A stretch of 64,000 nt of DNA from positions 224,001 through 288,000 of the forward strand of contig CAXXLX010000002.1 of assembly GCA_963665235.2 (NCBI GenBank). Direction: 5' to 3'. Positions within the stretch are counted from its first letter, which is position 1. The number at the start of each line of letters is the position of its first letter. The position numbers were made by a program, and so were the translations under genes. The stretch comes from Candidatus Poribacteria bacterium. Its GTDB lineage: Bacteria > Poribacteria > WGA-4E > WGA-3G. Shown here piece by piece: positions 33,494 to 61,724 of this stretch. Below the pieces are notes generated by a model, which saw only the letters and a program-made list of their open reading frames with translations, did not search any database and had not been told where the DNA came from.

Positions 33494-33790
33494 TTACCCT
33501 ATTTTCGACCCACTCCACGCTTGACTCCGGAACCCCTGATTCAAACGCGAACTGCGCGGGGCTTTTTTTTACTCAAAAATTGGAGCGAAAATCGCCTAAA
33601 CCCTTATGAATACTGACTCAAACGCGATTTTTACCGAAAAACACGAGAGAATTCAGTCACCGTATAGGTTTATGGGCTATTTCATCAAGCGATTCAGCTC
33701 AAGGTCGAATCGCGTTTGTTTTACGTTATTAAGTATACCACAGATTTGCATAAATGTCAAATTTTTTTTGCGATTTTTTTCAAAAAAACG
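33494..33790 (-). promoter_or_regulatory. CRISPR leader with sigma70 promoter
   Basis: Minus strand TTGACA (33760-33755) N17 TATACT (33737-33732); AT-rich. Confidence 0.75.
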
Positions 33791-34062
33791 AAAATTTCGT
33801 AATTTTAGCGGATAAATGCGGAGGGGGGTGGAAGAGGGGAAGGGGGAAGGATGGAAGAGGTCATAACATGCAGTCAGATGGATAGCAATCGTGCGCGTGG
33901 GTGGAAGGATGGAAGAGGGGAAAGGAGGCAAGATGGAAAGATGAAAGAAGCATCCAAAACGACATCGCAGCCGGAGATGCAAAAAAGAAGGGGGAAGGAT
34001 GGAAGAGGAGAGGTGGGGGACAGATGTCCCCCACGTAGCGGGTCTAAAGTTTCACTAAATCT

Positions 34063-35081: not shown

Positions 35082-35508
35082 ATACCATTTTTATTAATTA
35101 TTCTATCATTACCGGTTGTTAGAAATGAAACGGAGAACGGAAGACACAAACTATAAGTTTATGCTACTACAAAGACGCACAAACTGGAAGTTTATGCTAC
35201 TACAAAGACGCACAAACTGGAAGTTTATGCTACTACAAAGACGCACAAACTGGAAGTTTATGCTACTACAAAGACGCACAAACTATAAGTTTATGCTACT
35301 ACAAAGACGCACAAACTGGAAGTTTATGCTACTACAAAGACGCACAAACTGGAAGTTTATGCTACTACAAAGACGCACAAACTATAAGTTTATGCTACTA
35401 CAAAGACGCACAAACTGGAAGTTTATGCTACTACAAAGACGCACAAACTGGAAGTTTATGCTACTACAAAGACGCACAAACTGGAAGTTTATGCTACTAC
35501 AAAGACGC
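35082..35508. repeat. MITE family B left end followed by 11 x 33-bp REP tandem
   Basis: ATACCATTTTTATTAATT..GGAAGAC head identical to 61499 and 63466. Unit ACAAACT(GG/AT)AAGTTTATGCTACTACAAAGACGC spans 35146-35508. Confidence 0.9.
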
Positions 35509-35526
35509 AAATTTAACAGGACCATC

Positions 35527-35681
35527 GTAGGGGCGAGGTCGCCTCGCCCGCTAGGTCTGCCTCTAACTCCCATTAGCATAAGGGTTTATCAAAGCACTGC
35601 GTCCATCCTGATTATAGTAGAGCCTGTAATTATTTGGCACACACGGCGGGATCCGCACGGGCTGGGTGACCCAGCCCCTAC
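35527..35681. repeat. Inverted pair of GTAG REP hairpins (REPIN-like)
   Basis: GTAGGGGCGAGGTCGCCTCGCCC ... GGGCTGGGTGACCCAGCCCCTAC. Confidence 0.7.
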
Positions 35682-37830: not shown

Positions 37831-39288
37831 CTACGGTGTGCTGAGCCCTGCATCAATTATCTGCAGCAATAACCGCTTACGGGTATGTTGTTCTCGGAGG
37901 TCTGCGAAATAAACACGCCACTGCTCTTCTTGACCAAGGTGCTGATAGAGTGCCCTTAATTCTATTAAATATGCCGAAACTTTCTCGTAAGCTTCACGTT
38001 TTCGGAAAAGCGCGGTCTGTTCAATAAGACTTTGATAGAGCAAAATGGCGGTATCGGGATAGTGTTGACCAAGAAGTGTGAGCAGCCGTTCGGTGAAATC
38101 TGGGATACGTTTGACAATTGGGCCCTGCAAAAGGGACGCGTATTCGGCAACGGATAGGGGGAATTCTTCAACTGCTTTCCATGCTGCATCGTCGCGCTGC
38201 TGTGTGAACAGCGCGTGTATCAACCGATACCCCTCCTTTTCACGTAGGGCAAGCTGGAGGTAATCTTCAGTTCGCTCATCGCGAAAATATAGGGCAAGTA
38301 AAAGTTGAACGTGTGCCTGTCGCTCGGGGCTTTCATCGAGACGTTGTTCAATTGTTGTGTGTAAATCTGATGGATTTTGCATTGCACAGAGCTGTTCAAG
38401 GTGGTGTGTGAGGATAGGTGTGAATACCGGTGCTGCTTCAAAACTGAGTGACAGCAGCAGGCGGCAGTGTTCAGACAAGGTCTCAGGTGTAGCCCCGGTG
38501 TTTTTGAAACCTACTGACATCGGCTCTTGCGTGTTGAGGACAATGCGCGTGAACTGCTTTGTGCATTTTTTAACAAATCGGGGCAATTCATTCCGCTGGA
38601 GCGTGTCAGGATAATGCACAATTGATTGGTGTATGAGAGCATGGAGGAGGGCGAGCGCGAATTCCGTTTCGCCTACCTGTGCAAGTGATTCGGCATGCAT
38701 GAGGAGCTCTTCAAGTTGAGCTAACACCTGTTGAAGTTGATGTTGTTCCAGAAAGCTGTCTCCAAAAATGGTGTTGAGCTGTTCTCGGTAAGCCGTAACG
38801 AGTGGAATCGGGTCAGTTTGAGGGGGTGTATCCGGAATATCTGTCCATCCCTGCACTACACGTGCCAATGCTGGCCTTCGCTTGAGCATCTCCATAATGA
38901 TGTGCAAAAGCTGTTCCTTCGGTTTTTTCGCAAGCGTAGCAAGCAGGGTGTCGACAGAACAGAGCACCTCCGGCGCGTGAATGTAGGTCAACAGCAGTGC
39001 GACGATATGCTTACAATCTCCTTCACCGCCGTAAGGACATGAACAGGACGCGGCGGCAATCCCTGTGGGTATCAATTCCACAGACACCTTATACGGTTTC
39101 GGATATGTCCCGCGGCATGTTGCTGACAACGTATAGCCGTGGAGTACCGGGTTGCCAATTGCGCCATCGTGGAAGTATTCCAGGCCGCGTGTGAAACTCC
39201 GTTCTGTGCAGCGGTGTTTTATCTGAGCGTAGGTAAGGTGAGGACTTTGCATATCAAACCACGATTGTCTTGGGCTCTGATGTGACAT
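37831..39288 (-). CDS. SWIM zinc-finger domain protein with helical C-terminus
   Basis: SFTRGLEYF, CSCPYGGEGDCKHIVALLL (CxC..CxH); overlaps the cas2 3' end. Confidence 0.85.
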   Translation of the reverse strand: MSHQSPRQSWFDMQSPHLTYAQIKHRCTERSFTRGLEYFHDGAIGNPVLHGYTLSATCRGTYPKPYKVSVELIPTGIAAASCSCPYGGEGDCKHIVALLLTYIHAPEVLCSVDTLLATLAKKPKEQLLHIIMEMLKRRPALARVVQGWTDIPDTPPQTDPIPLVTAYREQLNTIFGDSFLEQHQLQQVLAQLEELLMHAESLAQVGETEFALALLHALIHQSIVHYPDTLQRNELPRFVKKCTKQFTRIVLNTQEPMSVGFKNTGATPETLSEHCRLLLSLSFEAAPVFTPILTHHLEQLCAMQNPSDLHTTIEQRLDESPERQAHVQLLLALYFRDERTEDYLQLALREKEGYRLIHALFTQQRDDAAWKAVEEFPLSVAEYASLLQGPIVKRIPDFTERLLTLLGQHYPDTAILLYQSLIEQTALFRKREAYEKVSAYLIELRALYQHLGQEEQWRVYFADLREQHTRKRLLLQIIDAGLSTP

Positions 39289-39610: not shown

Positions 39611-40579
39611 CTAAGGAAACACCCCGACGATGTGGTACTGTCCATATCCGAATGCTGTATGATGCCCGATATGTAGATATTTGCCGAGAACGATTAGCGG
39701 AAGGAAGGGTTTTATGTCCCCCTCAAAACGAATCTTGCCTCTGAATCCACTCATCGGAACTGATGTCTCCTGCCGATAAGAATATCTATCTCGCGGTAAC
39801 CACTGCAAACCGGAGGTATGCCTGACACCGCTGGCTTCCTTGATTAGGGCGGGTGCGTCTACGTCCAAATCCTCGCCGCAGTGACATAAACTCAAGAAAC
39901 GGATACGCCGGAGCAGGTTGCGGATGAGATGTTCAAACGTCAGATTGCTTGTCCAGCGTCCGTTGACCTTTATGCTGGTGGGGGTGAGAAAATCAAGTTC
40001 AAGTTCATCTGTAATGTGAGGTGCAACTCGTCCCACGTCATCAAGTCCGAGCAGGAGTCCATCGTCTGTCAGCATCTGATCCGTTGCGGTGTAGATTGTG
40101 TGACCCGGCTCTTCATCGGACGCGGGTAGGCTTTCGACTGTTTCCAGTAAACACCGCCCGCGCTGGTCTTTAAGTCCGATTCGTTGGATGCCCATCCTGT
40201 GGAAGGTAAATACCATCCATGGGAGTACCGCTATCGCCTCTCCGATGAGGATCAGATTACACTTGAAGGTGTCGCCTGGAGCGTATCGGACTTTGCCGGT
40301 ACGGGGTGGTTCAAGTACGAACGGATGTGGTGCGTACGTCTGTCCTCGGAGGACAGGACTGTCCTGCGGCACTGGCGTTTCAAAGCATCTGGAGTAGACG
40401 CATTGGTCCGGAAAGTGACACTGGTTTTCGCACTGCTGTTCGGTGCCGATGCAGACGGTGTGCCGGAGGACGTATCCAAATCTGCCTCTGAAGATGTTGC
40501 CTTTGTAGGCTGGCATCTTCAGGGGCTCTTGGACGGTGTATGTGAAGCGGTAACGCGCGAAGCGGAAGTTTTTGAGCAT
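39611..40579 (-). CDS. cas6: Cas6 crRNA processing endoribonuclease
   Basis: FRGRFG, PHPFVLEP, FLTPT, G-rich loop HIGHHTAFGYG. Start inferred at MLKNF (the ORF track starts at 40678). Confidence 0.88.
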   Translation of the reverse strand: MLKNFRFARYRFTYTVQEPLKMPAYKGNIFRGRFGYVLRHTVCIGTEQQCENQCHFPDQCVYSRCFETPVPQDSPVLRGQTYAPHPFVLEPPRTGKVRYAPGDTFKCNLILIGEAIAVLPWMVFTFHRMGIQRIGLKDQRGRCLLETVESLPASDEEPGHTIYTATDQMLTDDGLLLGLDDVGRVAPHITDELELDFLTPTSIKVNGRWTSNLTFEHLIRNLLRRIRFLSLCHCGEDLDVDAPALIKEASGVRHTSGLQWLPRDRYSYRQETSVPMSGFRGKIRFEGDIKPFLPLIVLGKYLHIGHHTAFGYGQYHIVGVFP

Positions 40580-40595
40580 GGGGGTTGTTGGTTCA

Positions 40596-41336
40596 TTACG
40601 CATCAGCGTTAGTCTTGGTTGCTTCAGCATCCGCATCCGAGTTAGGACATGTTGTTTCCGCGGGTTCCGACTCTGCACAAAGTAGGTCAGTAGACGGTAT
40701 TAAGGGCGTTTTGTCTGATTTGCGTACGAGTGCCACAAGGGCAGCATCAACAATACCTGCTAAATGGTATTTGGGGTCATAGTCTACTACTTGTTTGAGT
40801 TCTAGCCGTAGGGGCAAGTTCTTTTCTGCCAATTTTACATCCTTCAACGGTGGTATCCAGATTTCTGCTCCTCGGTCTTCTCGCAATTTTACCCAGCGTG
40901 TCTGTGTGCATTTAACGTCGGTACCCCACAAGGCGTGGTATTCTGTTAGAGCCTCTCTCTTTTTCCGAGACTTTTCTGGATTGTCCTGATCGTTTTCATT
41001 ACAACCGATCCAAACGTGCTTTTCGTCTTCGACATCAAATTCCAGCAGGCGTGCATAATGTTTGCCATCCCAATCTCGCCAGACGTGCCATTCGCCTTTC
41101 TCACCGAAAAGACGGAGATCGCTCACCAGTTCCCAATCCGGTTTCCATTTTGATTCTTTTTCCGATTCTGATTCTTTATATGGGGGCCAGCAGATGTCGT
41201 TTGGGGATACTACGCCAAAGCCGATAAACCCTGGTTCTTGCACCAAAACCCATGCTAAATCTTTTTCGGTAACATTGGACAGATGGCCACAAACCCATGA
41301 TTCATTGAGTTCTTCTATATGCGTTTTATTCGGCAT
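40596..41336 (-). CDS. csx19: Csx19 (TIGR03984-like) type III-D subunit
   Basis: DLRLFGEKGEWHVWR and LWGT motifs plus operon position. Start inferred at MPNKTH. Confidence 0.75.
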   Translation of the reverse strand: MPNKTHIEELNESWVCGHLSNVTEKDLAWVLVQEPGFIGFGVVSPNDICWPPYKESESEKESKWKPDWELVSDLRLFGEKGEWHVWRDWDGKHYARLLEFDVEDEKHVWIGCNENDQDNPEKSRKKREALTEYHALWGTDVKCTQTRWVKLREDRGAEIWIPPLKDVKLAEKNLPLRLELKQVVDYDPKYHLAGIVDAALVALVRKSDKTPLIPSTDLLCAESEPAETTCPNSDADAEATKTNADA

Positions 41337-42840
41337 CGGAATCCTCCTTGTCATTCTTCTTAGGTCGCCGTGATCCTTTAGGACGATCGGTATAGCTCTG
41401 CGCTGCATCGACACAGCATTGGAGAAAACCGGCATCACCATTTTCAACCGTCATGCGTTTGTCTTCGTCTTTTTTCAATTTCCATTCCCTTGTATTAGAT
41501 GGATCGGGGTCATCTTTATATATCAATTTTGCTGCGATACCTCGGAGTGTGCCGCGTCCGTTGCTTGTCTCCCCACCGAGAGCGGCATGTCCATACCAGA
41601 AATCCCGCAATGTCAACAGCAGTAAACCGATCTCCGCGTCGCCCGGTTCCTCCAACGTGAGTATTAACCGAAGATTGGATGCCGATTCTTTTTCAGCGAT
41701 TTCATCGAGACTAATCGGATAAACAGGCTTTTCGTTAAATAGGGCACCATCCAAGCTGCCACCAGTAAAGCGATCGATAGCAACACGATCTTGCCACTGA
41801 TATCGCACATTTTTCACTAGCTGCTCCTCAATCCTAACTCGACTTGCACGCGCATCCGGTTCCTGGTTCTTATCACCTTTTTCATAGACGTAACCAAACA
41901 TTTTGTCAACTGATTTCTCTGACCAACCAATAGTTTTCGCGATTAAGGTAGCACGATGGCGGAATGCACCGCCAAAGGAAGTTCCAGGAACAACGGGCTC
42001 TCCATCGGACTGTAGGTGTATCATGTCTGGGTCATCTGGATTTCCAGAGGAACTACGGATTAGCAGGGAGGTACACAGCTCAAAGTTAGCTTCAATACGG
42101 AAGTATCGTCGGTAATCGGATGGCAATGAGCGTATTTCTAAAGAGCTCGGGTCTCGAGACCAAGGATCGTCTCGGAGCCATGACATGACATCCTCCGGGT
42201 TGTTCATTTGCAAATCGCGTATTTGCCAAGTGCCTACTTTACCGCAACCATAACCGCGACGGGTGCGCGCACCTAATCGGATATTCCCATCCTGAAATCC
42301 GTGCAGAAGTGCCAAAAACAGTGCTGTTAAATCATAGTTCTTGTCCCCTTCACGAATCACACATTCCAGATTCAGTTCAAACTCGGTACCACGTTCAACA
42401 ACTTCTACATCAAACTTTGCTTTGTCCGCAGCGGATCCTGATTGTTTGTCCACGCGGACACCGTCTCGAGTTGATGTCGTCGCTTGCATACAGTGAGCAT
42501 CAGCAACTGTCAGAGCACTCATCGGGTCGGACTTCTCCACGGTATCTGCTTTTTCTGACCCACCGAAAAATCTTTTGAATTCTGATGATTCTTTGGTATG
42601 TCCTCCTTGATATTGCTTCCACGGTAAACTCTGGTGAGCGAGAAAGCTCCGTGCAGCACCAGTAATGGAGGCCCCAGGGATAAAAGGTTTCCCGGCTTCA
42701 TCCCTCAAGAGACACATATCTGCTATTCCAGTTTCGTCGCCGCCAAAGTGTGCTACACTCTCTAGTTTCCATGTCCCACGCGCATATAAGCGGCGGACAA
42801 CAGCATCATCCATAGGTTTTATGGTTGTTGTATTTGCCAT
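41326..42840 (-). CDS. cas7: Cas7-Cas7 (Csm3-like double RAMP)
   Basis: Two RAMP units: IPGASITG..LGARTRRGYG and VPGTSFGG..IDRFTGG..LGGETSNGRG. Confidence 0.88.
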   Translation of the reverse strand: MANTTTIKPMDDAVVRRLYARGTWKLESVAHFGGDETGIADMCLLRDEAGKPFIPGASITGAARSFLAHQSLPWKQYQGGHTKESSEFKRFFGGSEKADTVEKSDPMSALTVADAHCMQATTSTRDGVRVDKQSGSAADKAKFDVEVVERGTEFELNLECVIREGDKNYDLTALFLALLHGFQDGNIRLGARTRRGYGCGKVGTWQIRDLQMNNPEDVMSWLRDDPWSRDPSSLEIRSLPSDYRRYFRIEANFELCTSLLIRSSSGNPDDPDMIHLQSDGEPVVPGTSFGGAFRHRATLIAKTIGWSEKSVDKMFGYVYEKGDKNQEPDARASRVRIEEQLVKNVRYQWQDRVAIDRFTGGSLDGALFNEKPVYPISLDEIAEKESASNLRLILTLEEPGDAEIGLLLLTLRDFWYGHAALGGETSNGRGTLRGIAAKLIYKDDPDPSNTREWKLKKDEDKRMTVENGDAGFLQCCVDAAQSYTDRPKGSRRPKKNDKEDSDAE

Positions 42841-42875: not shown

Positions 42876-45290
42876 CTATGTTCGTCGCTTACGGTAGAGC
42901 GAGGTTAGCAAATGATTGAGGAATACTTGGCACATTTCCTTACTGTCTCCCTTCAGTTCATCAATCAGGGTTTTTCGCGTGTTTGCATAACTTTCATCAA
43001 CGTCGTCTTCAACGAGTGCTTCTATCTGAGTCCGAATTAATGATTCAGTTAGGGTCTCAGGGGCACTCCAAGCTATCTTGAATAAATCATACAATGTTGT
43101 ACTTCTTGGAAACCACGGCATACCGGATCGAAGGGTTATTCGACAATTCGTCAAACCTTCCTTCGCTTGCCTACGTAGGTCGTTCAGAGTATCAATGGGG
43201 ACATCTTGTTGCAAAAAGAAACGTAGTCTCCCGAGGAGCGCGTTGCTTGGGATTTCTTGTATGGCACCACGGATAGTCGCTATGTTCATCGCTCCCTGCT
43301 GCATTTCTGCCAAACAGCGGGTTCGAGCGATCTCTTTAAGAAGGGCTTGAACACACGCGGGTATCTCTGATCCCCCGGGGACAGGGGGACTATCTTGATT
43401 GTTGGGATCGTCAAGCTGTGTTTCCATTGTATTTGTCAATTTAAAGCGATTGATCGCAATGCGCCCATAGCCTTCACCTTTACGCAGCCCTAAACCATCA
43501 TATTCCAATTCCACCAGACGTTTTTTGTCTATTTCTTTAAGTTCTTGCTTTAATTCAAACACAAAAACACTACCAGCAGCTATAGCGGGCCACTGCTGTC
43601 GGGGCAGACGCAAGTGGGCGTTATAACCACCAACTAATTCCGTACGGGTATAGCTGCGTAAAAGTTTCAAATCGTCCGCATTCAAAGATAGCAATTTTGC
43701 CAATTCCTGTTTGGGGAAACATGAATCTGGATGTCCATTGTCATTGACAACCAGTAACTGAGATAACGTGGTAACAATTAAGCAATTGCCAAGATTAGGA
43801 ACACTATGTCCCAGTTGTCCAATAAATCCATCCCACTCAACACACCCCTTCAATTGTTGGGGCCCCTTAGCATCGACCCATTCAAATGCTGCCTCGCCGT
43901 ACTGTGCACTGCGAGACCGCCCAAGTCTTATTAGGTTTGTCCCTTTCAACCACTTTTGCAAGTCTTTCAAGTCCGACTCTGAACCCAGGACCACTCCTTG
44001 AAATGTTTCGCCTGTCTGGATGGCTTCATATTGAAAGAAGGCTCCGCCAGCTGAAACGTCTGCCCCAAGGGCACGGCCTATGCGGCGATCTTTTGAAACC
44101 CGGGCATGATGATAATTTCGTTCTGTTCTAACCGATTGACTCTCCACGACACCTTTGTCTAGTTTAGCATAGCGACGCTCAAGACGTTTTTTAGGTCTTT
44201 TCTTTGAGTCCTCGTCCTGTGCTTCCACCAAATCTACTAGCGTTAACATTCTGCTGTCCTTGAATTGACGTATGGAATGCGGAATAGGAAGTAGACGTTG
44301 TATGGAATCATGGGCTTCAGGGTAAGCTGTCAGGAACCGTAATTTACCCTCAAGAAATACATTGCGAAACGCTTGATCATCCGGTGTGTGATTCGGCTGA
44401 TGGAGATAGTGCCAAGCAGCAGCCCCCCATACATTGCTACCCGGGATGTCTTGCCGAGTCACAACAGTATTTGAATCTCCTTCTGTCGCTGGAATAACGA
44501 CTGGTGCTGTCAAAGTCAACCGATATCGCAACAAATGTGTGGGAATGCCGCTATGTGAAAGAGAAGTATTGGATGTCTGCTTTCTTGATGTTTTGGGCGA
44601 CTGGCTCACCATGATGGATGGAAGCGAATTTTGGTTCAAAACTTTTTCTGTCAAGTCGCACTCTTGGTTACTCCCGTCACTTTCAATCAGACGACAACAG
44701 ACCTTTCCGAGTCCACGGGTACGTGCAGTGCCCATGTATTGTAAGGCAGCAGCACTGATAGCTAAGGCATTAAGCAATTCTTTATCAGGATGCAGAGTAA
44801 ACTGCACCGGTGCTCGAAATACCAACCCCGGTCGGAGAGTACGGGTAAGACGAAGTGTGTCCTCTTGTGCTACGCCGGTCTGGCGATCTATGGCGGTTTG
44901 GGCGCGCACAGTAGAAAAGTGTTGCACGACATCCTCGCGGAGAATTTTCCGGATATTCTGATGTTGCAGATATTCCAGCCAGGGTTTCAAAGACGATGCT
45001 TCTACCAATTCAGCGTTTCCTACATACAAAGCAACCTCTCTGTCACCAGGGCTTTTTCCGGACTCGCCAAAAATCTTCGATGCTGGCGTAGAAGTCTGGT
45101 AACACGCTCCCCAAGCATCCGTAACATCACGATAGGCCTCACGCCACAAGCCTTTCAGCCTTCTACCAGGGAGAATTGGTAAGCCCAAGTCGTCAGAGGC
45201 TATGTCGCGGTCAACTAAGCCAACACGTCCCTCGCCAGATGCCGATGTTAATGGTGATTGCAATGTAATTTGCAAGACATAATTCATCAT
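42876..45290 (-). CDS. csx10: Csx10-like Cas7-Cas5 fusion with helical C-terminus (possible Cas11)
   Basis: GLPILPGRRLKG, MGTARTRGLG, IPGSNVWG, LGRSRSAQYG and GLGLRKGEGYG motifs. Confidence 0.85.
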   Translation of the reverse strand: MMNYVLQITLQSPLTSASGEGRVGLVDRDIASDDLGLPILPGRRLKGLWREAYRDVTDAWGACYQTSTPASKIFGESGKSPGDREVALYVGNAELVEASSLKPWLEYLQHQNIRKILREDVVQHFSTVRAQTAIDRQTGVAQEDTLRLTRTLRPGLVFRAPVQFTLHPDKELLNALAISAAALQYMGTARTRGLGKVCCRLIESDGSNQECDLTEKVLNQNSLPSIMVSQSPKTSRKQTSNTSLSHSGIPTHLLRYRLTLTAPVVIPATEGDSNTVVTRQDIPGSNVWGAAAWHYLHQPNHTPDDQAFRNVFLEGKLRFLTAYPEAHDSIQRLLPIPHSIRQFKDSRMLTLVDLVEAQDEDSKKRPKKRLERRYAKLDKGVVESQSVRTERNYHHARVSKDRRIGRALGADVSAGGAFFQYEAIQTGETFQGVVLGSESDLKDLQKWLKGTNLIRLGRSRSAQYGEAAFEWVDAKGPQQLKGCVEWDGFIGQLGHSVPNLGNCLIVTTLSQLLVVNDNGHPDSCFPKQELAKLLSLNADDLKLLRSYTRTELVGGYNAHLRLPRQQWPAIAAGSVFVFELKQELKEIDKKRLVELEYDGLGLRKGEGYGRIAINRFKLTNTMETQLDDPNNQDSPPVPGGSEIPACVQALLKEIARTRCLAEMQQGAMNIATIRGAIQEIPSNALLGRLRFFLQQDVPIDTLNDLRRQAKEGLTNCRITLRSGMPWFPRSTTLYDLFKIAWSAPETLTESLIRTQIEALVEDDVDESYANTRKTLIDELKGDSKEMCQVFLNHLLTSLYRKRRT

Positions 45291-46933
45291 TCTTTATTTT
45301 CCTCTCTGTCATCTACATTACCGGTTTCTGGTTGGACTTCTATCCAGAAGTCGAGCACTTCGAGCGGATCGAAGTAGGGCGTGGTCGGGGCATCACCACC
45401 TGTCCATCCGGTGGCCCTTGCATCGCCCCCTACACCGGATGATGGCAACTCCACATTACGCCATTGTGCCCCCTTAATGAAATGTTCACTTGCCACTGGA
45501 CCTTGCGTTAGAGCGTGTAAGAGACCTTTAGCACGATTGCGGGGCCACCCCGACGATTGGAAACCCTTTAAAATTGAGATAAAATTGTTCCAATTGTCCG
45601 AACCTATTGACACCTCATAGGGGCGTTGATGCAGTACTTGTCCTTCAAGGCTGCGATACTGCACTTCTCTTAGAGCTGTAATGGATCGGGTAGCACCTTC
45701 TTGAATAATCTGAAAGTCTAACCAACTACCTTTTGAATCTCCTTCTTCACGACGGTATCGCTTGGCCAGCGCACAAAGTTCATCAGCAAAACCGTAAGCC
45801 CGGGCAAATGGGAACTTCGTTGGCACGATCGTGATGCCCGCGCACGCATCAACAGATTCTTTCTTGCCACAGACTTGAATGTTGCCAGAAGAAAACGCTT
45901 TTAGATAGAACGCGGCAAGATGGAGCCCAACACGACCATCGCAAACAAATGTCAAATCATCACCACCGTACACAATTGGACGCAGCGGGAATACCTCCGG
46001 CGGATTGTGAAGTGCCTCCAGCGGCAAAGTAGCCTTGAAGTGCAGTAATGTTGCCTCTAAGGCCCTATGAGACAGGTCTGTCGTAGAAGCCGAAAACGCG
46101 CGCAGATTATGGAGGAATTCGGCATCTTCTTGAGATTCTTTGTCCACTACTCGGTTGAGCCGCTCTCCCATTCCGTTACCATCTGCATGGACTATAGCAA
46201 TGTGGGATTCACCTTCGCTACCTCCTAATTCCTCTCCAAGTTCAATGGCGAAACGTTGTCCATCTGGCAAGTCATTCCCTGCTGAAAGAACCTTGGAAAA
46301 TTCATTTGCAATAGAGTCCTGAGCAGGCCCGGGAGCCTGTTGAGAGCCAACCTGATTTCGCTTACTCACTGCAGCTAGCGAGATCCACTGTTGGTCTTCT
46401 TTGCTAAGCATACTTGCCGGAAGTTCGGTAGTGGTACAAGAACGAACAATAGGCAAACTATAGAGAGTTGAACCAAACGGAAGTGCTTCCTCACAAGCAG
46501 ACAGATCGTCCAATGCCGTACGATACGCCTCGGCAAATGTGGCATTTACATCTCCATATCCAACGGCGATACGAAGTGCCGGAGCCTTATATAGCAGCTG
46601 GCAGCTCCACGCCGAGACTGCCCGGCGCGCAGTATCTCGGCTACTGCATAACAAGGCAGCGTTTCCACCACCGACATAGAGGAGATTGACATCTGAAGAT
46701 GCTGACAGTGCTTCCGAAAGCGCGGGAATAGACTTGGGTATGCTCTGTTGGTACTTATCCCAGCAGTCTGTGTTAACAGCAAGTCCTGTCCCCTGGATAG
46801 ATTCAATCATACCTTCTTTGAGCCAATATTTTGCCAAATAGGATGCCCCAATATTCTCCTTCAAATGGTTGCTCTGAAAGACATATTTCTGAAGACTAAC
46901 AGTACCGAAAACCAAAATGCACTGAATTGACAT
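45287..46933 (-). CDS. cas10: Cas10 (type III-D, no HD domain, intact cyclase palm)
   Basis: YVGGGNA, VHADGNGMG, YGGDDLTF, KFPFARAY..A.ELC..AK. Confidence 0.92.
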   Translation of the reverse strand: MSIQCILVFGTVSLQKYVFQSNHLKENIGASYLAKYWLKEGMIESIQGTGLAVNTDCWDKYQQSIPKSIPALSEALSASSDVNLLYVGGGNAALLCSSRDTARRAVSAWSCQLLYKAPALRIAVGYGDVNATFAEAYRTALDDLSACEEALPFGSTLYSLPIVRSCTTTELPASMLSKEDQQWISLAAVSKRNQVGSQQAPGPAQDSIANEFSKVLSAGNDLPDGQRFAIELGEELGGSEGESHIAIVHADGNGMGERLNRVVDKESQEDAEFLHNLRAFSASTTDLSHRALEATLLHFKATLPLEALHNPPEVFPLRPIVYGGDDLTFVCDGRVGLHLAAFYLKAFSSGNIQVCGKKESVDACAGITIVPTKFPFARAYGFADELCALAKRYRREEGDSKGSWLDFQIIQEGATRSITALREVQYRSLEGQVLHQRPYEVSIGSDNWNNFISILKGFQSSGWPRNRAKGLLHALTQGPVASEHFIKGAQWRNVELPSSGVGGDARATGWTGGDAPTTPYFDPLEVLDFWIEVQPETGNVDDREENKE

Positions 46934-46951: not shown

Positions 46952-48082
46952 TTATTTCCAATGCAGATCTCTACGGAGGTATTTATAGAAATGATCTGAT
47001 AGAGACTGCCACTTATGACGTCCCCAGATTTGCAGAGGTAGGTCCGAGCTACCTGTCTCGTCTTGCAATTCTGCTTCAATGTATGGCTGGTCCTGTTGAC
47101 GAACACTACACAATACAATTGCACGTGCTTCATCACCACCAAGTTGTCTGGATCGAAGAATGGCCTCCATACCTTTCGCCTTAACCTCGTCAGCTCCGCC
47201 AGAAACAGTGCATGAAACTACGACAATTTGGTAACCTAACACTGCCACTACGTCCAATTCAAAAGGACGAACCCTTGAAGTAGTTGCATTGGATCGCCGA
47301 ACGTATACGTTATGGAAAAGTTCATAGTTACATCTTTGTGAATTCTGCCTACAAATTTTCTCCAATGCTGCTTTCATAGCTGCATATGCACCGTACTCAA
47401 GCAGGCGAAAATCGTGGATGAATCCATTAAGTGCTGCATTGCCGGCATCTATTTGTTCATCTGTGAGCTGACTGGGCTCCGGACAATCTTCTGTTACCTC
47501 ACGACCAACTTCCCGCTTCCAGTACGTGTGTCGGAAGGGGCCAAGCTCGAATCCATTCAGATCAGCAATGTTCGTAAGACTGGGATTAACATCTATACGG
47601 GTGTCCGTTACAAGCTTGTTGCTGTCCCAATCTACGATAGTCGGACCGTTGGGCGCGCGCGCATCTAAGTAGGAAGTTTTCATATCAATATTACTCGGCA
47701 ACGCAAAATCTTCAATAGCAGCAACAGTTTCAACACCCATAACCTTAGTTCCCCCCGTGTAATGAACGTGGATTTTCTCATCTGTCGGTAAACTTGGAAT
47801 AAGTCTCGTATTGATTTTATCGCGAACCTTTCCTGGATCACCTGCTGATGTTTCGTAAGTTTGGACATCAGGGATGTGTCCACAGTGTTTTTGTAGTCGC
47901 TCCTTTTCGTCACTTGTACCTGCGGTATGGACAAGTCTGGTTGTAACAGAGGCATCCAGTTTATCCTTCAAATGATACCAAGCGACCCAAACAGGGAGCG
48001 GGTTGGTCCCAACTGTCATTATCAGTTGTGTTGCCATAACCATAATCTCCATCGTATGCATGAATAGCGAACATTTAGGCAC
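46952..48082 (-). CDS. CARF plus restriction-endonuclease-like nuclease (Can2/Card1-like)
   Basis: VGTNPLP and HYTGGTKVM (CARF); FELDV..VVSCT and RQLGGDEAR (nuclease). The true start may be ~16 codons later. Confidence 0.82.
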   Translation of the reverse strand: MPKCSLFMHTMEIMVMATQLIMTVGTNPLPVWVAWYHLKDKLDASVTTRLVHTAGTSDEKERLQKHCGHIPDVQTYETSAGDPGKVRDKINTRLIPSLPTDEKIHVHYTGGTKVMGVETVAAIEDFALPSNIDMKTSYLDARAPNGPTIVDWDSNKLVTDTRIDVNPSLTNIADLNGFELGPFRHTYWKREVGREVTEDCPEPSQLTDEQIDAGNAALNGFIHDFRLLEYGAYAAMKAALEKICRQNSQRCNYELFHNVYVRRSNATTSRVRPFELDVVAVLGYQIVVVSCTVSGGADEVKAKGMEAILRSRQLGGDEARAIVLCSVRQQDQPYIEAELQDETGSSDLPLQIWGRHKWQSLSDHFYKYLRRDLHWK

Positions 48083-50499
48083 TAAAAGTCATAGGGCTCA
48101 TAGGCTAATCCGCTTTCATCAACCCTCGGAAGTGCCTCTCGCCAATTACGTTCGTTCTCTGTAAACCATTGGAAGTTCTCACCTTCTGGAGTCGGTTCAC
48201 GCTTCAGGCGTGGATAATGAATCGGCGAGTCATCCACGGGGCCTTCTAGGATTTGTAAGAAATCCGAGATGAAATAGAGATCGCCAAAACTTGGAGAGGT
48301 ATTATACGCTGCCTCCATACTTGCCTGAAACGCCTGAATACATTGGTTTCGCTGATTGTCATCCAACGTAGCGGGCGGATCGGCATCAAAGGTAGCGTAG
48401 TACTTTTTCCAATCTTCGCTAGTACCGAGTGGCAAAACCCCGTCGTCAACCTCCAGTCTCACACTCCCGAAACCCAGCGGCTTGCCGTATCCGAGTTTGA
48501 AGTAATGTTTTTCAGGAAGCGTTAGCAGCCAAAGTAGTGCACCAATCTCTTCAGGTTGTAGATTTTGAACGTACAGAGATGCCTTAAACTCGGTGCCGGG
48601 CTTAATCCAACTTGTAATCGAACGGTTCTGTGGATCTGTTTGTGGTTTGCCATCTTTATCATCAGGCCGGCGGTATTCTTGATATCGACCTTTACGCTTA
48701 ATCTTCGTTCTGTCCTCAACGGATGGCTGCCAGTAGCACAGTGTTTGTTTGCTCTCCTCCAACTCGGCTTCTAGCCCTGCATGGTGCCAATATTGCTTAC
48801 GGCCCCGTAACCTCTTACTCTGACTTGCGTCATAACCCGCGTCCTGCTTCCTGACACCGTCTTGTGGATCACCTTGATCGTCAGCAACATAGAAACGGCC
48901 CTGCGCCGGTTTTGGTTGTCCTAAAATTGTCAGTGGCAGTTTGCCATTAAATTTCTTAACAATTTCTGGTCGTGCACCATCCTCACAGACAACCCGGAGA
49001 CGGCTCTTGTAACCTGCATCATCTCCTTGTTCCTGAGGCACCCACCCAAACAGACGATCTGCTGGAGACAGCTTATTTCTCTTACTCGCCGGCCGGAGCG
49101 ATGGATCAAGCAGATCTTTCGGGCTGTCGACGTACAATTCGCGGGATATCAGGACAGGAAAAAAATCTTCAATTTCTGTAATCTTTCCGCGCTTGAACTT
49201 ACAGCGGGCATATACCATATCACCCGCTTTTAGTTCAAGCGCGTCATGTACATCTCTACCCCAGCGGTCCTTGTGTTTACCGTCCTCATACAGATGTGGA
49301 GACCAAGCAGTTTGACCAGGGTCTCTGCCAAGTTTTTTCCAAGGTTCATCCTGTGCCCCCTTTCGATTGAAAATATCGTTTTCGGAGTGTGCATCCCGAT
49401 AACTTTGGATACGCATGCGCCAGTCCTCTTTGAGCTCGTCGGTCACAGGCAAAGTGGTTTTCATGGGATTGAAGAAAATACGTTCATCATGTTTGTTGTC
49501 CATGTTTTCATTAGTAATCAAAATATGTCCTTCAACAACGTTCCCTCCAGGCAACGGGTTATTAGGATATCTAGATTTTGGCCAAACTTTTGTCACCTTC
49601 AAATATTGGTAACTCCGGTGCCGGCGGCGATCAATTTCTACCCAAACTTCATCGCGAGTGCGCGGCCCATATCCTCCGATACACACTGAATTCTCCTGCG
49701 AATTTCTATGGTAACATGTTAGCATTGCAGCGTACATAGGACCATTGGGCCCTGTAGGTGTCGGCGTACTAGTTCCTGTATATAAACGCGCTACTAAATT
49801 CCCACCGCCAGCATCTTCAATAACCGCCGGAATGAGATTCAAAGCTTCTTGCGGCCTCATACGATAGGCTAATCGATCTCCGTTACTAAAACACGCGTAG
49901 CGCGAATTCGTCGCTATTTCATAGGCACTACGCAACATACCGCGCAAAGACGATTCCGGTAGAAAGTCAAGCACGTCATAAATTTGATGTTCCTTTGGCT
50001 CTCGTTCCGTGCCATCATTCTTAAGTAACACTAAGGGCGTAACCGTGGTTATCTTGATTGGGATATGTCCTGTCCACAAACCATCTTTGAGAGACGCATG
50101 ATCAAGAGGAGGATTATGTTCCAACGGATCGAAATCACCAGCAAATCCATTTGACGGCCGCGGAGGCGTGGGGACAAAGGTATATGGATTATGGAAATAG
50201 TCGTGTTCATCGTCAGTTGATAGCGTCCCCTCTGAAGGTGGTTGATGTCCAGTAGGTTGATGTTCTTTAATCCTCAATGGTCGTCCCATCATCTCTTGAT
50301 TATCCAATGCTTCTATCGCCCGTTCGCCTTCCTCTCGGTTTTCCATTACAACCGTCCCGGACCCATTAGATTTACCTTGATGGGGTCCACTTTGGTGAAG
50401 GTTAATTGTGACAGTAGTTACCGTTCCATACTGCTCAAAGTGTCTTTTCAAGTCAGTATCGGTAGCACGGTATGGCAAATTATCGACATAGATTTTCAT
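48082..50499 (-). CDS. TIGR03986-like Cas7-with-insertion, fused to an N-terminal RRM domain
   Basis: FHNPYTFVP, LPESSLRGMLRSAYE, PADRLFGWV, LRGRKQYWHH, KLGYGKPLGFG. Residues 1-80 are RRM-like. Confidence 0.88.
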   Translation of the reverse strand: MKIYVDNLPYRATDTDLKRHFEQYGTVTTVTINLHQSGPHQGKSNGSGTVVMENREEGERAIEALDNQEMMGRPLRIKEHQPTGHQPPSEGTLSTDDEHDYFHNPYTFVPTPPRPSNGFAGDFDPLEHNPPLDHASLKDGLWTGHIPIKITTVTPLVLLKNDGTEREPKEHQIYDVLDFLPESSLRGMLRSAYEIATNSRYACFSNGDRLAYRMRPQEALNLIPAVIEDAGGGNLVARLYTGTSTPTPTGPNGPMYAAMLTCYHRNSQENSVCIGGYGPRTRDEVWVEIDRRRHRSYQYLKVTKVWPKSRYPNNPLPGGNVVEGHILITNENMDNKHDERIFFNPMKTTLPVTDELKEDWRMRIQSYRDAHSENDIFNRKGAQDEPWKKLGRDPGQTAWSPHLYEDGKHKDRWGRDVHDALELKAGDMVYARCKFKRGKITEIEDFFPVLISRELYVDSPKDLLDPSLRPASKRNKLSPADRLFGWVPQEQGDDAGYKSRLRVVCEDGARPEIVKKFNGKLPLTILGQPKPAQGRFYVADDQGDPQDGVRKQDAGYDASQSKRLRGRKQYWHHAGLEAELEESKQTLCYWQPSVEDRTKIKRKGRYQEYRRPDDKDGKPQTDPQNRSITSWIKPGTEFKASLYVQNLQPEEIGALLWLLTLPEKHYFKLGYGKPLGFGSVRLEVDDGVLPLGTSEDWKKYYATFDADPPATLDDNQRNQCIQAFQASMEAAYNTSPSFGDLYFISDFLQILEGPVDDSPIHYPRLKREPTPEGENFQWFTENERNWREALPRVDESGLAYEPYDF

Positions 50500-50557
50500 C
50501 TCGTTCCTCTATTGAATGTTGAACTTGAAGACTTCCTTCTTTAAGATATTAGATTTT

Positions 50558-51427
50558 CTAAACATGCCTAACTGCGGCACACAAACTATCGTTCAAATTT
50601 GTATGGTCGATGCTGGTAGTCACAAATCCCCAGGTCAATCTCGATAAGGACGCTCGGATGGACCTATCCTGTATGTTGCCTGTTACGCCGCCGCGTCGCA
50701 ACATATGAATTATAAAACGCCTTACAATGCCAAACGCGAAGTGTCCTGGAAGTAAATCAATGAAACGATGTTTCTTTAAAAACCCGTTAACCAAGACTTC
50801 CGCAGTAGCAATGCCTCCAACGCTAACGTGCACAGCCGCGGTACAGGACCAGTGATCAATTCTGTCAGCGTGGAAATCTATTTTTCCCTTCGTTGCAAAA
50901 AATCTGTCTGGCTCCCTGAGAAAACTCCGAAGATGTGGTGCTTCGTTGTGCCGTGCTATATCTAATACGAGTAGGTCCTTAAAGTTAGCTTCTACATTTT
51001 TGAGGAAGAGCCAGAATTCATTTGCTAGCGAAGGGAAATGGGGTCCGGGAACCCCATTCATACGGTCAAGACAAAACTTCTCTATCGGTTTTGCTTCAAA
51101 AAGATAGTTTTCAACAGAATGCCGATGAAGTAAAACAACTTGTGGGCCTAGACTCGGGGGAAACGGCAAAATGTCATAATCCCCATCAAGAATAACAACG
51201 TAACGGCGTTTTTTTACTTTGAGCGCATTTACTAGGGCCATGCATTTTGGTTTTCCACCCGCTGATTTTATTACACAATTAAACCGGTTAAGGAATGGAT
51301 CCCTTGTACAGATTTCGTCGTAGAAAGTCCAATCAGTTTTCCCCTCAACATAGATAACTACATCCTTTTTAGGATGAAAGTGAGGGGTTGCTATTAACCC
51401 AGGGACGGTTCGTGAAAACGTACTCAT
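50558..51427 (-). CDS. DUF4435 TOPRIM-like protein (PARIS AriB-like)
   Basis: IYVEGKTD, LDGDYD, HSVENY; 4-bp overlap with the upstream ATPase. Confidence 0.8.
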   Translation of the reverse strand: MSTFSRTVPGLIATPHFHPKKDVVIYVEGKTDWTFYDEICTRDPFLNRFNCVIKSAGGKPKCMALVNALKVKKRRYVVILDGDYDILPFPPSLGPQVVLLHRHSVENYLFEAKPIEKFCLDRMNGVPGPHFPSLANEFWLFLKNVEANFKDLLVLDIARHNEAPHLRSFLREPDRFFATKGKIDFHADRIDHWSCTAAVHVSVGGIATAEVLVNGFLKKHRFIDLLPGHFAFGIVRRFIIHMLRRGGVTGNIQDRSIRASLSRLTWGFVTTSIDHTNLNDSLCAAVRHV

Positions 51428-52737
51428 TGATTCTCCACCTCCAAATCTATAGCATCATCAGCTTCTAAATTTATAATATTATCCTCGAATTTTCCAACAA
51501 TATCGGGAGAATGGGTTGCGACAATTAGCTGTATTTGCCCACCAAGTGCTACCAGAGACTCTAGAAGTGTTTTTTGCCAAATGAGGTGGAGCGACAACTC
51601 CGGTTCATCTGCGATATAGACCACTGGTTTATCTGATTGAAGTAGGGCTTCGGTAAGTAAAATCAGAATCTGTTTCTCACCCGAGGAGAGGCGGTGCACC
51701 TCTAGGTCAGAGAGTGAAGAAGATCCAATCTTTATCTTTAACTTTCCACTTTCATCTACCTTAATGGATTTGTTACGCAAAAATGAATTGGCAAATTTCT
51801 CATAAAGACGCAATTGAGCCAAAATATCTCCTCTATCTTCTTCAAGTTTTCTTGAATGCTCAACCATGTTTTTGGTTCGACTGATCAGTGGAAAAACAAG
51901 TGTATCTTTGAATTTCAAATCTGCATCTTCAATGTTTCTAATTCGTTCGACTGATTCCTTTGCAGTATCAAAATGTTGATTAATTCTGCTCCGCATCTGT
52001 TCGTCTAGAAGATCGGCAGCACCAAAAGCCCTGATTAATTGTTCTTTCTCAACTTCTGTTGGTAAAGAACGAATTGACTCCAGAATCAAATCAGGTTGAT
52101 CTTGGTCTTTGCTGTAAAGGATCACTGATAGAACTTGACGTGAAAACTCTCTGTACCGTTCAGAAAGGCGTGCACTTAAGCCAGAGCGATACTCAGAAAG
52201 CTTTTCCAATAATCCAGAAAGTCGTGCGTCTACCGATTCCAAAGAATTTGTCCGAGATCTTTCTTCATCACCCTCTGGCACAGTTAAACGACGACTTACG
52301 GGAAGCCAAAGGAGAGGAACTAAGTTGGTCAATCTATTAGAAAATTCCTCTTCATCACTATACATCGATCTTCTGGTGCTTCTACCTATTTCATCCCTAA
52401 ACACTGTTTTTCCAGTAACGATGTTTCGCTCAAGCGACGAATTTTTCTCCCCAGTGAGTTCCAATTTTAAGGACCTGTTATCCTTCTCAACAGTAATAGT
52501 ATTGGGTCCATCATCTTCGCCTTCAAATTTACTTATCCCAATTTTGGCTTGCTCAAAATCAACTTTTCGGAGACTTTCCAAATCTACCGATAAGATCGAA
52601 TGGAGAAGGTTCAAAATAGTGGTTTTACCAGAGGCATTCGGACCTATCAGTATATTTACGTCGTCATAAAAAGTTAGGTGAATGTCTCTATAGTCCCACA
52701 GTTTGGTTATTTCAAAGGACTCAATACGGTACATCAT
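51424..52737 (-). CDS. AAA_15/AAA_21 ABC-type ATPase (PARIS AriA-like)
   Basis: GPNASGKTT, LSSGEKQ, IADEPELSLH..WQ and ATHSP motifs. Confidence 0.85.
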   Translation of the reverse strand: MMYRIESFEITKLWDYRDIHLTFYDDVNILIGPNASGKTTILNLLHSILSVDLESLRKVDFEQAKIGISKFEGEDDGPNTITVEKDNRSLKLELTGEKNSSLERNIVTGKTVFRDEIGRSTRRSMYSDEEEFSNRLTNLVPLLWLPVSRRLTVPEGDEERSRTNSLESVDARLSGLLEKLSEYRSGLSARLSERYREFSRQVLSVILYSKDQDQPDLILESIRSLPTEVEKEQLIRAFGAADLLDEQMRSRINQHFDTAKESVERIRNIEDADLKFKDTLVFPLISRTKNMVEHSRKLEEDRGDILAQLRLYEKFANSFLRNKSIKVDESGKLKIKIGSSSLSDLEVHRLSSGEKQILILLTEALLQSDKPVVYIADEPELSLHLIWQKTLLESLVALGGQIQLIVATHSPDIVGKFEDNIINLEADDAIDLEVENQ

Positions 52738-59692: not shown

Positions 59693-60730
59693 TTAATCGA
59701 CGGGCATTGCTTGTTCAGGAATTTCTACGCCTTGCTCGCTCCAGAATTTGTACGCACCAGCATGAAGCGGTATAACGAACGCCTTCGGGGCATTTTCTAC
59801 GGTCATATCCGCTGCAGCTCGCGTCACTCGCAGCATGTTTTGATGCCCTTCGGGGGCGTAAACGTGCTTTAACATGGCATAGACAGTCTCCGCCCGCACG
59901 TCTTTGTGGGAAATTAGCAGAGTCGGCATGACAATGGTTTTCACGGATTCAACTTTTCCATCATAAGCTCCCTCAGGTAAGGTTCCCGGGAGGTAGAACG
60001 GATATTTTTCATAGAAACCGTATTTCTTTGCAGGCGTGTCAAGGTCAAGCATGCGGATGGACTTAATGGTTGTGAGCTGGATGATGGCACTGTTGGGAAC
60101 GCTGACGAGCCATTGGAACGCTTCAACTTGCCCATCTTGGAGTGCTTCAGCGGCGGCCGTGCCGCCTTTGTAAATTGGGGTAAATTGTCCCCAGATGCCT
60201 GCTAATTTTGCTAACCGTTCTAGCGTTTTAGCGGTGCCGGAGCCGCTTGCCCCGCAAGCAATCTTTTTCCCGACAATGTCCTCGAATTGATGCACATCGC
60301 TGTTCTGTGGAGTTGAGAATTGGTCGTACGCCATAAAGAGGAGTGTCACAGCGCGGAGATTGGTTTGGGGGCCGTCTTTTTCAAAAATTTCTTTCCCATA
60401 ATACCCCAGATAGGCTTCGGATGCGAAGAGGACACCGAGGGTTTCCGAATCTTTGTTGATACGACGGGTGTTTTCAATTGAACCGGCGGATGCTGTGACG
60501 GCTATCTTAAGATGCGGTTCATGTTTGGTGACAATACTTCTGATGCCCCCAGCGAATTGGGAGAAACTACCGCCTATGCTGCCTCCCATAATGGAGAGCC
60601 ACTCCTTTTTTGGGGTGACTGTGTTTTCTGTGGTACTTTTATCGCTCTGTTTACTGTTATCGCTGCATCCGCAGAAAACGGTCAGCGCAACTATAACGAG
60701 GCATATCCCTAGCTGAAACTTTTTTAACAT
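59693..60730 (-). CDS. TAXI family TRAP transporter solute receptor (lipoprotein), paralog
   Basis: Start MLKKFQLG after an AAGGA RBS, FCGC lipobox, GSIEN, IPLHAGA. The upstream ORF extension is repeat-derived. Confidence 0.85.
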   Translation of the reverse strand: MLKKFQLGICLVIVALTVFCGCSDNSKQSDKSTTENTVTPKKEWLSIMGGSIGGSFSQFAGGIRSIVTKHEPHLKIAVTASAGSIENTRRINKDSETLGVLFASEAYLGYYGKEIFEKDGPQTNLRAVTLLFMAYDQFSTPQNSDVHQFEDIVGKKIACGASGSGTAKTLERLAKLAGIWGQFTPIYKGGTAAAEALQDGQVEAFQWLVSVPNSAIIQLTTIKSIRMLDLDTPAKKYGFYEKYPFYLPGTLPEGAYDGKVESVKTIVMPTLLISHKDVRAETVYAMLKHVYAPEGHQNMLRVTRAAADMTVENAPKAFVIPLHAGAYKFWSEQGVEIPEQAMPVD

Positions 60731-60835
60731 TACGCGTCCTTTCTGTGATAGATATAGCAAAATAATACCACAGTGCCGATGATATTTCAAGTTAATTACG
60801 GTTGGGTGTGTAAAGTTTTCGTCATAATGATAGAG

Positions 60836-60938
60836 GGAAGGATGGAAGGGTGGAAGGATGGAAGGGTGGAAGGGTGGAAGGGTGGAAAGGTGGAAGGATG
60901 GAAGGGTGGAAAGGTGGAAGGATGGAAGGATGGAAGAG
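60836..60938. repeat. Octamer tandem repeat (GGAAGG[A/G]T)n
   Basis: About 12 copies; a degenerate version lies at ~33826-34010. Confidence 0.85.
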
Positions 60939-61079
60939 GGGATTTCGCTTGTGTTGTCTGAATCGCGGATTAGCACGGAGAACGCGGAGAACACGGAGTT
61001 TAAGATGTGTAACAATCAAAGTTTTGGGATTATAGATGGCTATCGTCTAATACCGAATTAAAAAAATTAATTTTCATTA

Positions 61080-61498: not shown

Positions 61499-61724
61499 AT
61501 ACCATTTTTATTAATTATTCTATCATTACCGGTTGTTAGAAATGAAACGGAGAACGGAAGACCCAAACTAAAAGTTTATGCTACTAGAAAGCACGCAAAC
61601 TGGAAGTTTATGCTACTGGAAGTTTATGCTACAACAAAGCACAAACTGGAAGTTTATGCTACTACAAAGCACAAACTGGAAGTTTATGCTACTACAAAGA
61701 GACATTTTCAATTAGGAATGGTAT
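61499..61724. mobile_element. MITE family B with ~5 internal REP units
   Basis: Ends ATACCATT..AATGGTAT; body shared with 35082 and 63466. Confidence 0.8.

Follow-up and report, generated by a model that had tools for sequence, protein, structure and literature searches.

An RRM domain that alternates with a cold-shock domain at the N-terminus of a type III-Dv-like Cas7-insertion subunit

The window analysed here, a 64,000-nucleotide stretch of a Candidatus Poribacteria genome (contig CAXXLX010000002.1, positions 224,001 to 288,000), encodes an 805-residue protein that comparison with known families identifies as the Cas7-insertion, or 'head', subunit of a type III-Dv-like CRISPR effector, and whose N-terminus is a real RNA recognition motif (RRM) domain, tethered through about 20 disordered residues (Table 1). 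Comparison with its relatives indicates that subunits bearing an RRM, or a cold-shock domain (CSD) in the same place, form one clade in Candidatus Poribacteria, Latescibacterota and Binatia that shares a rearranged operon, that the two kinds of cassette have been exchanged repeatedly between closely related cores, and that the RRM of the window itself is a derived variant. We propose that the N-terminal domain is a putative arm for single-stranded RNA, and weigh this proposal below against other roles.

The domain assignments agree across methods. Pfam RRM_1 (PF00076) matches residues 3-76 over all 70 profile positions (54.1 bits, where the cut-off is 20.7; E 1.5e-14), and an AlphaFold2 (AF2) model of residues 1-100, built from a 56-row alignment (A3), has the order beta-alpha-beta-beta-alpha-beta (strand 2-6, helix 14-22, strands 27-35 and 44-52, helix 55-65, strand 76-79), with block means of the predicted local distance difference test (pLDDT) at 92-96 to residue 80 and values below 50 for linker residues 84-100. 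Foldseek with the RRM model returned PDB matches numbering at least 500 at E <= 0.001; the matches listed, 40 in number, are without exception RRM proteins, the best being the bacterial RNA-binding protein 7jly (E 1.5e-8, 43% identity, root-mean-square deviation 1.0 A over 79 columns). Beyond the linker, NCBIfam TIGR03986 matches residues 105-751 (303.9 bits against a cut-off of 161.35, profile positions 1-566 of 568), and query residues 100-796 align with residues 112-787 of the Cas7-insertion chain of Synechocystis III-Dv (8s9t_E, E 1e-117), an alignment that takes in the insertion region of the core. An earlier note on this DNA, made from the letters alone, had described an RNP-type RRM followed by a low-complexity linker and the F-H-N-P-Y start of a type III-D Cas7-insertion subunit, and had suggested a profile search for both families; this description is borne out in each part, with RRM_1 and TIGR03986 both above cut-off in one open reading frame (ORF).

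A stop or frameshift between the domains was also looked for, and none was found. Contigs from three public runs of one study, which may include the sample from which the window was assembled, cover 49900-50700 with substitutions only and zero insertions or deletions; a single contig (50177-50355, one difference) spans the RRM, the linker and the F-H-N-P-Y motif, and the same variant RRM stands in frame in 10 database proteins. Contig ends and branch points in these runs concentrate at 50145-50162, 50196 and 50282-50302, around the motif at the border between cassette and core, a clustering that would suit cassette variants within one community but that we do not count as evidence for them, because unitigs branch at any shared word. 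Other runs, some of them labelled sponge metagenome, gave only small word shares and are left out of account, with no claim on habitat drawn from them. In an RNA-library run (X10), contigs are 90-99% alike across the junction and may be DNA carry-over.

The earlier note had taken the RRM for an added module; the fusion itself is real, but the RRM replaces an N-terminal domain of about 110 residues that most TIGR03986 proteins possess. The F-H-N-P-Y motif was located in 247 collected proteins, most of which have 80-140 residues ahead of it, and 83 were classed as carrying a third type of N-terminal domain, for which Pfam matched 0 of the 60 N-termini searched. A hidden Markov model (HMM) of this third type matches the N-termini of the Synechocystis (E 1.1e-13) and Nostoc (E 1.7e-19) proteins, the loci L001 and L002 and 11 loci among L018-L031, and no locus of the RRM or CSD type. 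Because of the Synechocystis and Nostoc matches, we equate it with the domain called uncharacterized in the structure papers, the accessible text of which describes Synechocystis residues 1-112 as uncharacterized, flexible, absent from the cryo-electron microscopy map and located at the opposite side of the 'head' from the insertion domain (PMC11026444; bioRxiv 10.1101/2022.06.13.496011). Its model (76 rows, pLDDT 88) runs strand-strand-strand-helix-strand-strand, with the helix between strands 3 and 4, and a structure search of 48,161 representative chains placed Unr cold-shock domains at the top (Z 7.5, 2.7 A over 63 positions; Z 7.4, 2.5 A over 63), followed by the oligonucleotide/oligosaccharide-binding (OB) domain of EF-P (Z 6.6), NusA S1 (6.2), Lin28 (5.8), RNase R (5.6) and CspB (5.5); 29 chains reach Z >= 5, and they are mostly CSD, S1 or OB domains. 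In most lineages, the N-terminal domain thus models as a family-specific five-stranded barrel of OB/cold-shock-like topology, with no relation to the RRM cassettes by hhalign (0.2% probability).

The RRM of the window belongs to a wider pattern. Among the 120 closest homologues (clusters that include the query, labelled by HMM except for two read by eye), 61 carry an RRM, 53 carry a CSD (PF00313) and 6 are truncated or without the N-terminus; precomputed Pfam annotation agrees, giving PF00076 or PF00313 plus RAMPs, and just three of the cluster names are informative, each a plain 'TIGR03986'. An alignment query of genome contigs found 27 related loci, where a single-protein query found none. 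The window's gene order, with the adjacent Card1-like gene, recurs in all 12 of the loci L006-L017: the RRM-type loci (L011, L012, L015 and L017) are all Candidatus Poribacteria, the CSD-type loci belong to Poribacteria (L006, L007), Latescibacterota (L008, L009, L013, L016) and Binatia (L010), and L014 is cut off at a contig end. The 15 loci L018-L032, drawn from cyanobacteria, Acidobacteriota, Actinomycetota, Caldiserica, Alphaproteobacteria and others, have the Synechocystis gene order in those long enough to show it, and a match to the Card1-like gene was sought in them and not found. Within the window's phylum, the core occurs in 12 of 151 sampled genomes, all of one family, and short free RRM genes occur in many more. 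The earlier note had not recognised the fusion as a standard architecture, and we likewise found no description of an RRM or CSD on Cas7-insertion in the literature searched, the scope of which excluded subscription journals and supplements; in the accessible text of the III-D papers, 'RRM' is used solely for RAMP or palm folds. Yet within this entire clade the fusion is the rule, alternating with the CSD. Short forms of the subunit (534-641 residues) also occur at L015:9998-11749, L016:9803-11407 and L017:10001-11926 and in G027, G036, G108 and G113; they retain the RRM or CSD together with the two ends of the core and lack approximately query residues 217-453, much of the insertion region, and the G027 copy has one in-frame TAA.

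Exchange of the cassettes is indicated by the phylogeny of the cores. On a FastTree phylogeny of 240 cores cut at the motif, with their N-termini removed, the distinction between RRM or CSD and barrel requires 1 change (branch support 100), and that between RRM and CSD requires 15. Sister cores can carry different cassettes while remaining 86% identical over 789 residues (P0121 with a CSD, P0112 with an RRM) or 87% identical (P0042 and P0036), and in such pairs the difference extends through the entire linker to the motif. An IQ-TREE phylogeny of 51 chosen rows gives 13 changes, and approximately unbiased (AU) tests reject monophyly both for the RRM-bearing cores (log-likelihood difference 1987, p 1e-53) and for the variant-RRM cores (difference 979, p 1e-63), though it tells against these figures that the tree groups were named after the first tree had been seen and that the 51 rows were picked with the sister pairs in mind. 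The window's variant cassette stands at no fewer than five places on the core tree, and in one comparison (P0001 and P0060) the variant RRMs are 94% identical and the cores 62%. No BLASTN match at 1e-3 links the 400-nt regions upstream of the gene from 11 loci and the window, so that no conserved 5' recombination anchor was found.

The likely donors are the hosts' own genes. The window genome has one free RRM gene, whose protein is up to 95% identical (median 80%) to the canonical fused RRMs; the window's own fused RRM is 58-61% identical to it in two comparisons. Free RRM genes fall into two genus-specific types, and fused cassettes of both exist. In G096, the protein sequences of the fused RRM and of the free one from that genome are 95% identical, and their DNA is 84% identical along 268 nt that start about 35 nt ahead of the ATG, a divergence close to that of the free genes between two species (82.5%); the fused RRM of G070 is 84% identical to its own free copy, and that of G123 is 88% identical to the type of the other genus versus 81% to its own. 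Fused CSDs score 35-41 bits on Pfam versus 73-75 bits for the CSDs of their hosts. The canonical RRMs thus look copied from the hosts' own single-RRM protein genes, and the data fit repeated capture of the 5' ends of genes for host RNA-binding proteins.

The window's cassette departs from these canonical forms. In RRM domains, the RNP2 aromatic lies on strand 1 and the RNP1 aromatics lie at octamer positions 3 and 5 on strand 3. The window RRM retains the RNP2 tyrosine (I-Y-V-D-N-L, residues 3-8) and reads G-S-G-T-V, without both RNP1 aromatics, where G-F-G-F-V is usual, a replacement already pointed out in the earlier note and upheld by the sequence and the alignment. Among 66 fused RRMs, RNP1 is canonical in 54 (53 of which also have RNP2), has the window's form in 10 and is otherwise odd in 2; among 54 CSDs, [FY]-G-F-[IV] is present in 42 and G-T-G-W-I in 9 more. 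All ten variants have lost both RNP1 aromatics, and all ten share a conserved His/Gln/Gly-rich loop with a 3-residue insertion, which the alignment of fused RRMs places between beta2 and beta3 in the window. The window's linker contains no Arg or Lys and has a net charge of -6 over residues 79-101, and the medians follow suit, with variant linkers at -6 and no Arg or Lys versus +2 and 7 Arg plus Lys in canonical ones. A search for a free-standing variant RRM, an insensitive one, found, among 26 candidates scored, nothing beyond fused forms that are truncated (P0268, P0269) and RRMs of a generic kind at <=45% identity; it does not show absence, because it also missed the free RRM of the same genome. 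Because the window cassette has no RNP1 aromatics, a conserved new loop and an acidic linker, its contact with RNA may be weakened or changed. The earlier note had offered RNA capture or protein interaction as the module's function: since the window RRM represents a derived minority form, capture of RNA can be assumed less safely in its case than for canonical cassettes, and protein interaction stays as an alternative.

The N-terminal domain of the III-Dv head is an acknowledged blank, 'uncharacterized' and invisible in the published maps according to the accessible text of PMC11026444. Its replacement by two folds that bind single-stranded RNA, together with the OB/CSD-like model of the barrel, therefore offers a first concrete and testable role, that of a tethered RNA arm. 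Across the Cas7-insertion family, the N-terminal position holds a small, flexibly attached domain, and in one clade the barrel has given way to a host-type RNA-binding domain, RRM or CSD. The insertion domain exposes a 6-nt seed at the 3' end of the CRISPR RNA (crRNA) (PMC11026444; bioRxiv 10.1101/2022.06.13.496011, accessible parts of both), which occupies a pocket of positive charge (PMC11026444, likewise). Beside this seed, the tethered domain may act as a low-specificity arm for single-stranded RNA that would catch or unfold transcripts and pass them to the seed, and faster target finding would in turn promote the cleavage of RNA and the signals that Cas10 sends to the Card1-like and Csx1-like effectors nearby. 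We hold this role to be evenly poised between right and wrong for the family, and less likely for the variant in the window.

Several observations count against such an arm. All structural matches of the barrel lie below Z 8, which the guide of the search tool rates as middling, and for that reason we describe the barrel as OB/CSD-like in topology without assigning it to that class; Foldseek with the barrel model returned nothing at E <= 0.001, its weaker rows being mostly OB-fold proteins, hhalign of the barrel against the CSD cassettes gave only 21% probability, and the barrel alignment has no conserved aromatic surface of the CSD kind. The window variant has neither the RNP1 aromatics nor, in its acidic linker, the basic residues of canonical linkers. 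In addition, the accessible part of a preprint describes an engineered design from which the first 104 residues were dropped, printed as 'were necessary for cleavage' in a context suggesting that 'unnecessary' was intended (bioRxiv 10.1101/2022.06.13.496011). If the domain is indeed dispensable in vitro, the arm would be solely a kinetic or in-vivo aid.

Where the window's variant is concerned, the chief rival to the arm is a role as a switch or in protein binding. The variant RRM would no longer bind RNA and would instead be a protein-interaction or autoregulatory module that, for example, docks a protein, or whose acidic tether fills the seed pocket until a target arrives. The invariable loss of the RNP1 aromatics would suit such a role, as would the invariable new loop, which points to selection beyond the canonical surface, the contrast in charge between variant and canonical linkers, the positively charged pocket described for the seed (PMC11026444, accessible text) and the failure to find a free-standing variant protein, weakened as that result is by the insensitivity of the search and its missing of the genome's free RRM. 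However, the RNP2 tyrosine and the overall fold are retained, the variant swaps with canonical RRM and CSD at the same position on related cores, which suggests an equivalent role, and no partner was identified; we judge this alternative unlikely, if clearly worth entertaining. A further alternative has the N-terminal domain handle the guide, holding or protecting the crRNA 3' end during trimming and helping to set the fixed length of III-Dv crRNA. The subunit does cap the crRNA 3' end, and all three cassette kinds are folds known to bind single strands, but in the solved complex, as the accessible text of PMC11026444 has it, it is already the insertion domain that holds the crRNA 3' end, the N-terminal domain being disordered, and free exchange of RRM and CSD is not obviously compatible with a role specific to the guide. 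We consider guide handling very improbable.

The domain could also be neutral baggage, fragments of abundant genes of the host having been dragged in by recombination at the 5' edge of the operon's first gene. In 12 of 12 loci the rearranged operon opens with this gene, the captured DNA takes in about 35 nt of the free gene's 5' leader, and the truncated preprint design (bioRxiv 10.1101/2022.06.13.496011, accessible part) could be read the same way. Yet no complete protein among the 120 closest homologues lacks an RRM or CSD, the binding motifs show conservation, only RNA-binding folds occupy the position while distant relatives keep an OB-like barrel, and all 10 of the 10 variants preserve the new loop; we give baggage as little credence as guide handling. 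More speculatively, the Cas7-insertion N-terminus might be a hot-swappable specificity or counter-defence cassette, in which captured 5' ends of host RRM and CSD genes are shuffled between cores, driven by phage inhibitors or RNA decoys aimed at the arm, or by the benefit of plugging into host mRNA handling (nascent transcripts, ribosomes, the degradosome); the window variant would then be further on the way to a seed-gating switch of an autoinhibitory or protein-binding kind. We regard this extended scenario as quite doubtful. If true, its logic would reach the effector nuclease, which bears an RRM in one relative.

A CRISPR effector that borrows host housekeeping RNA-binding domains as exchangeable cassettes would represent an unusual course of effector evolution. 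The cores that are 86-87% identical and bear either RRM or CSD are natural domain-swap sets, and they may help to tune RNA-targeting tools derived from III-D and III-E effectors.

The closest known system is III-Dv of Synechocystis sp. PCC 6803 (8s9t chain E; Nat Commun 2024, PMC11026444), the head subunit of which belongs to the same TIGR03986 family and shares with the window protein the layout of a small flexible N-terminal domain, a linker and a core starting at F-H-N-P-Y, as well as the partner set of Cas10, Cas7-Cas5-Cas11, Cas7-2x and Csx19. The N-terminal domain is a Pfam RRM in the window, whereas in Synechocystis it is the family-specific barrel without a Pfam match; the cas7-insertion gene is first in the window's operon and last in that of Synechocystis, and it is followed by the Card1-like gene in the window and by Cas_APE2256 (Csm6-type) in Synechocystis. 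Free bacterial single-RRM proteins (7jly, and that of the window genome) share fold and length with the fused RRM, but the window RRM is fused to a CRISPR subunit and lacks the RNP1 aromatics and the basic tail. The CSD cassettes on sister Cas7-insertion proteins occupy the same position, with the same kind of linker and with cores up to 87% identical, and the CSD and RRM cassettes appear to be functional equivalents although the CSD, absent from the window, is an OB barrel with a fold unrelated to that of the RRM. The type III-E Cas7-11 and III-D2 Cas7x3 proteins match the C-terminal part of the window core (9wxh_D at 1.9e-18, Cas7-11 chains at 1e-10 to 1e-13), to which NCBIfam NF041225 also scores 89.5 bits; unlike the window subunit, they hold the insertion-bearing Cas7 domain inside a large fusion protein, for which the accessible text of PMC13294483 names INS and CTE domains only.

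The surrounding genes of the window (Table 1) make up a III-Dv set (Cas10, Cas7-Cas5-Cas11, Cas7-2x, Csx19, Cas7-insertion, Cas6 and the array), in the order cas7-insertion, Card1-like gene, cas10, cas7-5-11, cas7-2x, csx19.

Table 1. Features of the CRISPR locus in the window (window coordinates)
Feature	Position	Strand	Basis or remark
Cas7-insertion ORF with N-terminal RRM	48082-50499	-	single unbroken ORF, 805 aa
RRM domain, residues 1-80	50260-50499	-	Pfam, AF2, Foldseek, alignment with 65 other fused RRMs
Low-complexity acidic linker, residues 81-101	50197-50259	-	pLDDT, composition, charge
Cas7-insertion core, residues 102-805 and stop, starting at conserved F-H-N-P-Y-T-F-V-P	48082-50196	-	TIGR03986, 8s9t_E, PADLOC Csm3/Cas7_IIId
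Gap between AriB-like gene and cas7-insertion ATG, 58 nt	50500-50557	-	purine-rich G-A-G-G-A a few bases before ATG
Card1/Can2-like CARF + PD-(D/E)xK protein ('p376')	longest ORF 46952-48082; likely 46952-48037	-	PADLOC, Atlas
Cas10, 548 aa, G-G-D-D present	45287-46933	-	Pfam Cas10-Cmr2_palm2
Cas7-Cas5(Csx10)-Cas11 fusion, 804 aa	42876-45290	-	RAMPs, Cas_Cmr3, TIGR02674 Csx10
Cas7-2x, Csx7-type double RAMP, 504 aa	41326-42840	-	TIGR02581 122.8 bits in 4 stretches; RAMPs twice
Csx19	40596-41447	-	TIGR03984 63.2 bits, cut-off 35
Cas6	39611-40678	-	Pfam CRISPR_Cas6 1.5e-17
SWIM zinc-finger protein, 3' of cas6	37831-39288	-	PADLOC PDC-S62 2.2e-14
Reverse transcriptase	35715-37151	-	Pfam RVT_1 2.3e-35; PADLOC RT
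Cas1	34063-35049	-	Pfam Cas_Cas1 8.4e-94
CRISPR array, 45 repeats, 37-nt invariant core, start-to-start 72-79 nt	30181-33500, end approximate	-	repeat family D1
CARF-HEPN Csx1/Csm6	26890-28044	-	PADLOC 1.2e-86

No HD-domain family is among the Pfam or NCBIfam matches of the Cas10. The repeat's reverse complement ends in A-T-T-G-A-A-A-C, from which we take the array to be transcribed on the strand of the cas genes, and the CARF-HEPN Csx1/Csm6 gene on the far side of the array brings the CARF effectors of the locus to two, which differ in nuclease type. The other of these, the Card1-like protein, matches PADLOC Csx1 (9.5e-51) and CARF_PDDEXK (2.8e-45) and is called Card1-like by Atlas (0.94); its start is probably the Met at 48037, because residue 16 of the longest ORF is where 8 of 12 orthologues start. 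The protein and 11 orthologues keep F-E-L-D-V-V ... V-S-C-T, with K-x-K-G-M-E following a few residues later, and S-C-T stands where we would presume the E-x-K of PD-(D/E)xK. At L055:1429-2937 (G113), a Card1-like orthologue also has an N-terminal RRM (Pfam residues 25-95, 29.9 bits; PADLOC CARF_PDDEXK 1.5e-38), and the orthologue at L017, of 603 residues, has an N-terminal extension of about 140 residues without assignment.

Directly upstream of the cas7-insertion gene lie genes for an AriB-like DUF4435/TOPRIM protein and an AriA-like AAA_15 ATPase, a PARIS-like pair (50558-52737, minus strand). A consensus promoter scan found no promoter-like site in the 58-nt gap; the nearest strong consensus, a perfect sigma-70 match at 52989-52960, lies upstream of the AriA/AriB-like pair, and co-transcription of the pair with the CRISPR operon is possible. 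A gene for the SWIM protein is found at the equivalent place in two related loci (L006:21352-22314 and L012:16284-17099). Between the reverse transcriptase and Cas1 genes, a 33-nt tandem repeat is present in 11 copies (35112-35540), with related 30-nt units about 26 kb away at 61567-61704, and 8-nt G/A-rich tandem units occupy 60813-60956, in the 5' part of an ORF at 59693-61015, with a weaker copy of the family at 33888-33951.

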